From: Escherichia coli
GTDB taxonomy: Bacteria; Pseudomonadota; Gammaproteobacteria; Enterobacterales; Enterobacteriaceae
Reading direction: 5' to 3' (one strand)
Assembly (NCBI RefSeq): GCF_003334335.1
Contig: NZ_QOWQ01000033.1
DNA length: 53,508 nt
The notes beneath the pieces are model-generated. The model did not search any database and had not been told where the DNA came from. It worked only from the letters and a program-made list of their open reading frames with translations. Shown here piece by piece: positions 20,207 to 20,875 of the stretch. Position 1 is the stretch's first letter. Each line of letters starts with the position of its first letter. A program made the translations under genes and the position numbers.

Positions 20207-20565
20207 AAAGTCCTGTCCAGAAAGAAGTCGGCCTCGCAAAAATGAATAAACCCAGTTTCTCTTGCGCAACAGGTGGAGAAGTCGAATACGCAGTATGTAA
20301 AAAATGAGGCAACAGATTCACTGGGGAGGTCGCGAGGAGGCGCAATTCTACAAAATTGCGCATTTCACTACCAGTCTGGAGTCAGCCCGGATATGAACTG
20401 CAACTATTGCAAATAAAGAAATTAAGCTGGAAGGCATCGCGCAATGAGGAAGATTGCCGGGTGCTGACAGTAAAAAGCAATCGTAGAATCAGCGGCAAGC
20501 CGGAAAGGTTCCGGTGAGGCGCAATGTTGCGGGGGCTTTATCCCTGGTGGCATTGGTTGCTGGAG

Positions 20566-20634
20566 AGAGAAAACCCCCGCACGTTGCAGGTATGCACCTG
20601 ACAACACCACGGGGGCTAATCTTGACTCTAGACC
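20566..20634 (-). ncRNA. rdlD: RdlD antisense RNA of the LDR-D type I toxin-antitoxin locus (approximate ends)
   Basis: Minus-strand hairpin CCCCCG...CAGG-tgcata-CCTG...CGGGGG followed by TTTTCTCTCTC, upstream of and opposite to ldrD; ends placed from memory of RdlD length (about 66 nt). Confidence 0.5.
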
Positions 20635-20681
20635 ACTCAAGAATAGCCGCGAAACGTTGTCATTACAACACAGGCGGCTAT

Positions 20682-20789
20682 ATGACGTTCGCAGAGCTGG
20701 GCATGGCCTTCTGGCATGATTTAGCGGCTCCGGTCATTGCTGGCATTCTTGCCAGTATGATCGTGAACTGGCTGAACAAGCGGAAGTAA
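20682..20789 (+). CDS. ldrD: LdrD type I toxin peptide (35 aa)
   Basis: MTFAELGMAFWHDLAAPVIAGILASMIVNWLNKRK, the C-terminal 35 codons of ORF 20514..20789. Confidence 0.85.
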   Translation: MTFAELGMAFWHDLAAPVIAGILASMIVNWLNKRK

Positions 20790-20875
20790 CGTGTCATGCG
20801 GGCGTCAGGCTGCCGTAATGGCAATTTGCGCCCGGACCAGGCCGCAGGGGGGAAACTCTGCGGCCTTTTTCGTTC

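Follow-up and report, generated by a model that had tools for sequence, protein, structure and literature searches.

The ldrD/rdlD type I toxin-antitoxin module between yhjV and bcsG of Escherichia coli: a buried ribosome binding site and a possible relay in the action of the antisense RNA RdlD

We analysed a stretch of 53,508 nucleotides of Escherichia coli (contig NZ_QOWQ01000033.1 of assembly GCF_003334335.1), which we call the window, and focused on the element that lies between yhjV and bcsG. This element is the already known and annotated ldrD/rdlD type I toxin-antitoxin module (LDR-D) of E. coli K-12. Positions 20200-20950 of the window are 100% identical to positions 3,699,819-3,700,569 of strain MG1655 (reverse-complemented), and the matching stretch is annotated there with ldrD (b4453) and rdlD (b4454), between bcsG and yhjV; therefore, this is the textbook LDR-D locus, with zero differences from the reference copy of MG1655. 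RefSeq records of identical sequence carry the same neighbour gene names around ldrD. A previous reading, made from the sequence only, had proposed an LDR-D type I module between yhjV and bcsG, beside the end of the cellulose operon, and both the identity and the placement agree with the annotation (start of yhjV at 20206, stop of bcsG at 20876). We are highly confident that a module made of a structured ldrD mRNA, a membrane toxin and a 66-nt antisense RNA is the best explanation of the element, and nothing that we found speaks against this identity. The ldrD/rdlD pair has been annotated and studied since 2002, and Pfam and Rfam families as well as a nuclear magnetic resonance structure exist for it. 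What we add here are corrected boundaries, evidence for an ancient position next to bcsG and an ancient leader structure, a weak case for a leader open reading frame (ORF) called ldrX, a relay model for the action of RdlD and a resemblance of the leader to that of hok.

Regarding the extent of the element, the sequence-only reading had placed its left boundary at 20270, which is merely the limit of a TTG-extended ORF and has to be given up, because the coding sequence (CDS) of yhjV starts at 20206. That reading had also described an insert of roughly 600 bp. There is indeed a gap, which measures 669 bp (20207-20875), but only about 400 bp of it belong to the LDR element. The comparison with the other LDR copies, which had been suggested as a check, gave homology to LDR-A, LDR-B and LDR-C of K-12 along 20481-20873, with around 80% DNA identity, and the leader and the 3' untranslated region (UTR) are homologous too. 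In strain ST2747, which has two tandem copies at this place, the second copy starts at the equivalent of position 20473 and is 95.6% identical. From these comparisons the repeat unit appears to be essentially the ldrD transcription unit, from the -10 box through the terminator. In the other part of the gap (20207-20472) we found no Rfam family at E <= 1.

The ORF of 35 codons that had been taken for LdrD encodes exactly this peptide. It matches the Pfam family PF13940 (Ldr_toxin) over its full length (residues 1-35 of 35, E = 6.9e-27, 93.7 bits), which is its sole Pfam match, it is identical to the chain of the PDB entry 5LBJ ('Small toxic polypeptide LdrD'), and it shares 57% identity with the peptides of LDR-A/B/C. 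In order to describe its conservation we used loci found by a peptide-pattern scan, with one genome per species, and an alignment of 40 distinct units (A3). The CDS is free of gaps across the 40 units, the variable columns are distributed over the three codon positions as 26, 14 and 33, and the median ratio of nonsynonymous to synonymous substitution rates (dN/dS) is 0.27, being 0.18 between LDR-D and LDR-A. This coding signature, found in 40 copies from six genera, indicates that the ldr peptide is under purifying selection. According to the literature LdrD is a single-helix inner-membrane toxin. Its overproduction kills the cells, and RdlD prevents this killing via inhibition of translation (PMC4147584; PMC8309996). 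Deletion of ldrD or rdlD leaves proton-gradient dissipation unaltered, and the deletion of rdlD gives only a small depolarisation signal (PMC11997105); what chromosomal type I modules do in the cell is debated (PMC4147584).

On the opposite strand, a GC-rich stem-loop followed by a T-run had been noticed about 40-115 bp upstream of the toxin ORF, and it is present there as the antisense gene rdlD. RdlD is fully complementary to the ldrD 5' UTR, from 49 nt (5' end) to 114 nt (3' end) upstream of the ATG, and therefore it leaves the ribosome binding site (RBS) uncovered. The covariance-model search that had been proposed for it returned the Rfam family RF01813 (rdlD) at full length (model positions 1-66 of 66), with 87 bits against a gathering score of 50 and E = 4e-17. 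In MG1655 the annotation of rdlD corresponds to 20633->20570, so the 5' ends coincide at window position 20633. The RNA folds with -29.5 kcal/mol (z = -4.0 against shuffled sequences) into a GC-rich hairpin followed by UUUUCU. A minus-strand RNA of about 66 nt, as had been expected, has been detected in published Northern and double-stranded RNA (dsRNA) data, where a p19-captured dsRNA peak of about 21 nt, cleaved by RNase III, lies within the ldrD/rdlD overlap; in an rnc mutant both RNAs were slightly stabilised in Northern half-life assays (PMC7373196). An 'ldrD short' species is also seen in rnc mutants. The first characterisation of the antisense RNA is cited in reviews (PMC4147584; PMC8309996). 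In general, RdlD is described as short-lived and the ldrD mRNA as very stable. As to its promoter, a scan of 20150-20950 with the sigma-70 consensus returned no promoter at threshold 9; the putative rdlD promoter listed in Table 1 has 8 of 12 hexamer matches, just under this threshold.

Table 1. Features of the yhjV-bcsG gap (positions of the window; RNA features that were predicted or read by eye are marked as such)
Feature	Position	Strand	Basis and remarks
yhjV, CDS start	20206	-	annotation
Non-LDR part of the gap (yhjV upstream region, ~265 bp)	20207-20472	.	LDR homology begins farther right
LDR-D repeat unit, ~400 bp (mobile or duplicating unit)	20473-20873	+	homology to LDR-A/B/C and to the ST2747 copy
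Putative ldrD -10 box, TAGAAT (TAGTAT in LDR-A/B/C); no convincing -35	20484-20489	+	conserved hexamer at the left edge of the LDR homology; predicted
ldrD mRNA, ~376 nt	20497-20872	+	5' end predicted from the -10 box, 3' end from the terminator
5'-terminal hairpin GCCGGA/UCCGGU	20499-20515	+	consensus helix 1; closing pair covaries GC:21 / AU:15; variable loop
Fold-back helix, 5' arm GGCGCA (partner UGCGCC, 20827-20832, in the 3' UTR)	20518-20523	+	RNAalifold helix 2, predicted
ORF-1, 25 codons, preceded by GGUGAGG	20524-20601	+	start motif GGTGAGGCGCA(A/G)TG conserved in all genera
rdlD, 66-nt antisense RNA (antitoxin)	20633->20568	-	Rfam RF01813
Segment GGGGGCUAAUCUUG: GGGGG (20610-20614) and UUG (20622-20624), candidate ldrX start and candidate anti-anti-SD (SD, Shine-Dalgarno sequence)	20610-20624	+	within the RdlD target
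Hairpin UCUUGA...UCAAGA, loop holding the RdlD start site (20633)	20620-20642	+	consensus helix 8; pair 143:160 covaries UA:29 / CG:9
Putative rdlD promoter: -35 TTGTAA (20668->20663), 17-nt spacer, -10 TATTCT (20645->20640), start G20633	20640-20668	-	read by eye, predicted
SD-sequestering hairpin: AUAGCCGC (20643-20650) with GCGGCUAU (20674-20681)	20643-20681	+	consensus helices 9 and 10
ldrD CDS, 35-aa toxin MTFAELGMAFWHDLAAPVIAGILASMIVNWLNKRK	20682-20789	+	Pfam PF13940; RefSeq WP_000141634.1 / YP_026227.1
3' UTR hairpin GCGGGCG...CGCCCG, conserved; includes the 3' partner of the fold-back helix	20799-20834	+	consensus fold
ldrD intrinsic terminator, 11-bp GC-rich stem and U-run	20839-20872	+	scan match 20839-20866, then TTTTTCGTTCT; helix 15
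bcsG, stop	20876	-	annotation

The peptide-pattern scan gave 30 loci, belonging to Escherichia, Citrobacter, the Klebsiella oxytoca group, Kluyvera, Pseudocitrobacter and Salmonella enterica subsp. arizonae and diarizonae. In nearly all of them Rdl scored above its gathering score, always on the opposite strand and starting 47-52 nt upstream of the ldr ATG; no such match was found in L008, where ldr lies at the end of the contig, nor in L019 and L034. The mean pairwise identity of the 40 units is 0.87 in the 5' UTR and 0.76 in the CDS, that is, the untranslated leader is more conserved than the gene that it precedes, which points to a strong constraint at the RNA level. Within the species the module is universal in our sample, since all the 5,426 complete E. 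coli genomes had a match, with a median of 4 places per genome. The position next to the 3'-end of bcsG is common to Escherichia, Citrobacter, Salmonella and Klebsiella, therefore this is an old location.

The two kinds of LDR copies of K-12 have the same architecture, although LDR-D is a single copy beside bcsG in the window and LDR-A/B/C form a triple tandem array at kdsA-chaA. They also differ in an indel of 1 nt, which sets the upstream UUG frame in frame with ldrD in LDR-D, and in the apical loop of the Rdl hairpin. No part of the leader varies more than this loop (20590-20600 in the Rdl/target hairpin), whether the paralogues LDR-D and LDR-A/B/C or different genera are compared, and it could be a source of cognate specificity between copies residing in the same cell. 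Another variation was observed in all ldr leaders of the Klebsiella oxytoca group, where 7-8 extra nucleotides (e.g. GATTGATG or GAGAGAT) follow GGCAT at A3 columns 65-72, as in L017:1306-1503.

The predicted ldrD mRNA is highly folded, with a minimum free energy (MFE) of -181.6 kcal/mol (z = -8.3 against shuffled sequences), and its 3' UTR alone reaches -45.6 kcal/mol (z = -4.3). The terminator ends 3 nt short of the bcsG stop codon of the opposite strand. In the RNAalifold consensus of the 40 homologues there are 81 pairs, and 98.2% of the sequence-by-pair cells are standard pairs compared with 33-48% in controls with slid partners, a control that favours the consensus fold because the structure was derived from the same 40-sequence alignment. 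Double-sided changes affected 11 pairs, against 6.3 ± 1.3 in shuffled alignments, and compensatory changes back three helices, namely the 5'-terminal hairpin, the hairpin at 20620-20642 and the inner stem of the SD hairpin. The six pairs of the fold-back helix were kept in 40 of 40 sequences with zero variation, therefore this helix is neither supported nor refuted by covariation.

The inner stem of the SD hairpin pairs GUUGU (20656-20660) with ACAAC (20665-20669), the SD itself is AGGCGG (20672-20677), and the hairpin reaches one base before the AUG. The local fold has -17.3 kcal/mol (z = -4.9), helices 9 and 10 are paired in 97.8% and 99% of the cases respectively, and the pair 181:186 covaries (CG:23 / UA:15). 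These data indicate that the ldrD SD is buried by a conserved, covarying hairpin. The RdlD target region, in turn, has its own predicted hairpin of -25.4 kcal/mol. A further long-range helix was predicted between the GUUGCUGG stretch of the 5' UTR (~20553-20560) and the Asp-Leu-Ala-Ala codons (~20718-20725), which are the most conserved part of the CDS; in the corresponding A3 columns (74-81 : 245-252) 97.5% of the cells are paired, and synonymous changes in the CDS turn U·G into U-A, so that the pairing is preserved.

The ldr leader resembles the leader of another type I system, hok/sok, which is known from plasmid R1 and from the chromosomal hokA-E. With permissive thresholds, the Rfam model RF01794 ('sok') matched the window at 20531-20684 (+) over the whole model, with 24.2 bits, which is below its gathering score of 59. 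What this model actually represents is the sense-strand leader of hok, up to the hok AUG, and it gives 118 and 110 bits on the true hokC and hokB. It matched every ldr leader tested, at full length and ending at the ldr AUG, with 26.6-47.1 bits in the homologues, all of them below 59. The highest ldr scores came from Klebsiella oxytoca copies (L017:1343-1503 and L017:865-1026), with E = 8e-8 in a search of 25 kb and the best E values in the range of about 1e-7 to 1e-9; elsewhere in the same 25 kb the model had no other match at E <= 10. The functional elements fall at corresponding places of the model: the SD-like element lies at 84-87 in hokC (GAGG, the mokC SD) and at 84-88 in ldrD (GGGGC), the leader start codon at 97-99 in mokC (AUG) and at 95-97 in ldrD (UUG), the antisense 5' end at 106 for both SokC and RdlD, and the antisense 3' end at about 44 in hokC and about 47 in ldrD, both within ~44-48.

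The reciprocal searches gave weak but consistent results. A covariance model built from ldr leaders only (R1) found no hok leader with the default filters. With the filters off, the hok leader came first in 6 of the 8 loci whose hok leader is intact, scoring 3.9-13.6 bits (best E = 0.0013), on the right strand, at full length and ending at or near the hok AUG. A sequence-only profile of 40 hok leaders placed ten ldr leaders as the top ten in 152 kb (E = 0.012-0.37, with noise below), and a sequence-only profile of ldr leaders against the K-12 hok loci stayed at background level (hokC 5.6 bits, E = 0.31). The toxins are unrelated, with no BLASTP alignment between LdrD and HokC at E <= 100.

The literature calls ldr/rdl and hok/sok analogous, not homologous. 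In each of them the toxin mRNA is stable and highly folded, and a short, unstable antisense RNA encoded in cis is directed against the leader and not against the toxin RBS; RNase III cleavage occurs in both, a leader ORF has been proposed for both, and a 5'-3' fold-back is predicted for ldr too. They differ in that ldr has no conserved mok-like peptide and that the removal of its 3' end in silico does not open the RBS. Perhaps the leader and antisense gene of ldr/rdl are a diverged homologue of those of hok/sok, that is, one ancestral regulatory cassette under unrelated toxins, though we would not go so far as to call this probable; the alternative is convergence, in which shared constraints that keep an antisense promoter and a terminator at fixed places could have produced the same arrangement. 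If the leaders were homologous, RdlD would act via a hok-like relay of SD, anti-SD and anti-anti-SD, with or without a mok-like UUG frame. The well-characterised hok/mok/sok mechanism would then give ldr a concrete template, and the evolution of type I modules would proceed by swaps of the toxin ORF under a conserved RNA control cassette.

This module raises the question of how translation can be silenced by an antisense RNA that binds 50-115 nt upstream of the start codon. Since the ldrD SD is buried by its own hairpin and RdlD binds upstream of it, RdlD acts at a distance. In 10 homologues the opening of the RBS (20670-20690) would cost 10-18 kcal/mol, and two upstream candidate entry sites are also closed, at 9-24 kcal/mol; thus no translation is expected from the full-length mRNA. 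Within the RdlD target, GGGGGCUAAU (20610-20619) is able to form pairs with AUAGCC (20643-20648), the anti-SD arm, in a fold that appears in the single-sequence MFE structure and is implied by the hok model. We then blocked the target in transcripts that end at +18, at +48 or with the stop codon. This made the RBS harder to open in 12 of 12 homologues, with a predicted rise of the cost between +0.7 and +9.6 kcal/mol, typically of +3 to +6 kcal/mol.

From these calculations we propose the following relay. Direct entry of the ribosome at ldrD would be impossible and translation would need the segment GGGGGCUAAUCUUG. This segment would pair with the anti-SD arm AUAGCC and release the SD, and in addition its UUG, placed after the SD-like G-run, might start a frame running through the SD hairpin to the ldrD AUG ('ldrX', analogous to mok). 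The pairing of RdlD would sequester the segment, so the SD hairpin would be locked and leader translation would no longer be available to open it, and RNase III would cut the RdlD/ldrD duplex. RdlD would then silence ldrD by sequestering an anti-anti-SD, possibly also the start of ldrX, at 20610-20624, a modelled mechanism that we put forward tentatively, as somewhat short of probable. In this way the comparative and thermodynamic results narrow the question of RdlD to two sites accessible to direct mutation, a segment of 15 nt (20610-20624) and one hairpin (20643-20681).

Several points weigh against this relay. In the full-length mRNA the simulated binding of RdlD changed the cost of the RBS by only ~0 to +3 kcal/mol and the RBS was closed regardless, therefore the relay would be relevant only to nascent or processed transcripts. 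The removal of the 3' end in silico, as in the activation of hok, opened neither the ldrD RBS nor the RBS of ORF-1. The hok-like alternative fold was 78% paired on the ldr sequences, compared with 99% for the closed fold. The duplex with RdlD was mimicked by forcing the target to be single-stranded, which is a crude stand-in, and the transcription start of ldrD was deduced from the sequence. The UUG of the segment is replaced by UCG in all nine Klebsiella units, with a compensating change across the stem, and its open frame, described below, is weak evidence. Finally, a 2021 review states that the mechanism of RdlD 'is currently unknown' (PMC8309996).

The rival that survives best, although we consider it unlikely, is a pure coupling to a leader ORF, in which ldrD would be translated only via ldrX and RdlD would block the initiation of this upstream ORF. 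The idea of a mok-like leader ORF 'ldrX' comes from Gerdes and Wagner and still awaits experimental confirmation (PMC4147584; PMC8167048). The buried SD of ldrD means that some opener is needed, and the SD-like GGGGG and the UUG lie inside the RdlD target, and on the hok-leader model the UUG falls no more than 2 nt away from the mokC AUG. In 30 of the 30 distinct non-Klebsiella units the frame that begins at UUG(20622) reaches the ldr AUG without a stop, but the only fair control frame is open in 23 of 30, so the open frame counts for little. Relative to ldr, the UUG frame is +0 in 19 units, +1 in 7 (ending at AUGA) and +2 in 4; in LDR-A/B/C it ends at AUGA, whereas in LDR-D it is fused in frame to ldrD, which gives an N-terminally extended protein and not an overlapping ORF. 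No leader peptide is conserved, the UUG site itself is predicted to be closed (9-17 kcal/mol), and the compensatory change that accompanies UCG in Klebsiella indicates that the nucleotide is constrained by the stem. As a whole, the comparative support for an ldrX leader ORF is suggestive at best.

Two other leader starts were considered and rejected. ORF-1 varies from 11 to more than 50 codons and suffers frameshifts, e.g. in LDR-C of K-12, thus it is probably not a conserved leader peptide; its AUG lies within a conserved stem, and the A->G changes found there preserve the pairing. The in-frame AUG at 20592 is confined to LDR-D-type Escherichia copies, being UAA or UAC in LDR-A/B/C, which also counts against the coupling.

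A blockade of a standby site, as in tisB/IstR-1, seems quite improbable. The 30S subunit would load upstream and slide to the RBS, and RdlD would occupy or destroy the standby region. The distance at which IstR-1 binds on tisB is similar to the 49-114 nt upstream of the AUG at which RdlD binds, the ldrD RBS is closed by a hairpin of -17 kcal/mol and RNase III cleaves the duplex. However, the prediction shows nothing clearly single-stranded in the target, which has the hairpin of -25.4 kcal/mol mentioned above, the opening of 20608-20630 would cost 9-17 kcal/mol, and no processed active species of the ldrD mRNA has been defined. More generally, tisB/IstR-1, zorO/OrzO and dinQ/AgrB resemble ldrD/rdlD in having a sequestered RBS, an antitoxin RNA that pairs with the 5' UTR far upstream of this RBS, and a full-length mRNA known or predicted to be translationally inert. 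They differ in that the genes of their antitoxins lie in trans or divergently, that the complementarity is limited, and that 5' processing is known to produce their active forms.

The Fst system (RNAI-RNAII, par of pAD1) offers a different comparison. Fst and LdrD are both small single-helix membrane peptides with a charged C-terminus that condense the nucleoid on overexpression, and reviews place them in one toxin superfamily (PMC4147584; PMC8309996). LdrD gave 13.8 bits (E = 0.039) with the Fst model NF033608 of NCBIfam, below the cut-off of 26. Pairing of the Fst antitoxin involves the 3' end and direct repeats that surround the start codon, whereas RdlD overlaps divergently and lies wholly in the 5' UTR of ldrD; no antisense RNA was detected at the ldrD 3' end in the Rfam scans.

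We regard it as very unlikely that RdlD acts by degradation only, triggering RNase III cleavage and decay without a specific translational mechanism. The RNase III product of about 21 nt in the overlap and the stabilisation in the rnc mutant point in this direction (PMC7373196), as does a 2025 paper according to which type I antitoxins remove the active transcript via RNase III cleavage (PMC11997105). Nevertheless, full-length ldrD responds only slightly to rnc in its level and half-life (PMC7373196), reviews give RdlD as a translation inhibitor (PMC4147584; PMC8309996), a cut at 20593-20626 would spare the SD hairpin and the CDS, and the strong conservation of this hairpin and of the leader structure would be left unexplained. 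That the module is an inert relic, a decayed repeat that lost its function, is hardly credible in spite of the nearly silent phenotype of the ldrD and rdlD deletions (PMC11997105) and the debate on chromosomal modules (PMC4147584), because it is kept in every complete E. coli genome and at the same site in four genera, with purifying selection on the peptide, an even more conserved leader, compensatory pair changes and expression of both RNAs (PMC7373196).

Turning to minor observations on the repeat, two or three tandem units are frequent among the 30 loci, and at the bcsG-proximal locus in particular many strains and species have 2-3 LDR units where K-12 has one. Tandem loci are L002:3274-4157 (E. 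coli ST2747), L006, L007, L016-L018, L021, L024 and L028. In a sample of 25 evenly spaced E. coli records, the ldrD terminator is the exact breakpoint of 14 matches, and ST2747, the strain that we examined, has its second copy there. A copy found on a plasmid was considered as evidence of mobility and rejected, because the hit is a chromosomal ychO-chaA-ldr-kdsA-prfA block carried by the 195-kb plasmid p23AR0151A (L035, NZ_CP195449.1 118139-126501). We also found a near-identical E. coli-type ldrD/rdlD in an assembly labelled 'Bacillus sp. EB106-08-02-XG196' (L005, NZ_JABWSY010000055.1), on a contig of 503 bp with a coverage of 0.66, which is almost certainly contamination.

Elsewhere in the window there is a second type I toxin gene, hokA (MPQKYRLLSLIVICFTLLFFTWMIRDSLCELHIKQESYELAAFLACKLKE), at 337-489 (+). 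The end of IS150 (window 1-304, with the start of insJ at ~256, -) truncates the mok/leader region of hokA, in line with the MG1655 annotation of mokA as a pseudogene. Between cspA and ldrD (937-20200) the window is 168 bp longer than MG1655, as the mapping goes from 3,720,937-x near cspA to 3,720,769-x at ldrD. The Rfam matches above the gathering score included the cspA thermoregulator/mRNA at 621-1048 (-), with 500.8 bits, a tRNA at 12245-12318 (+), the REP-type element naRNA4 at 12415-12494 (-) and ES036 at 14730-14772 (-).

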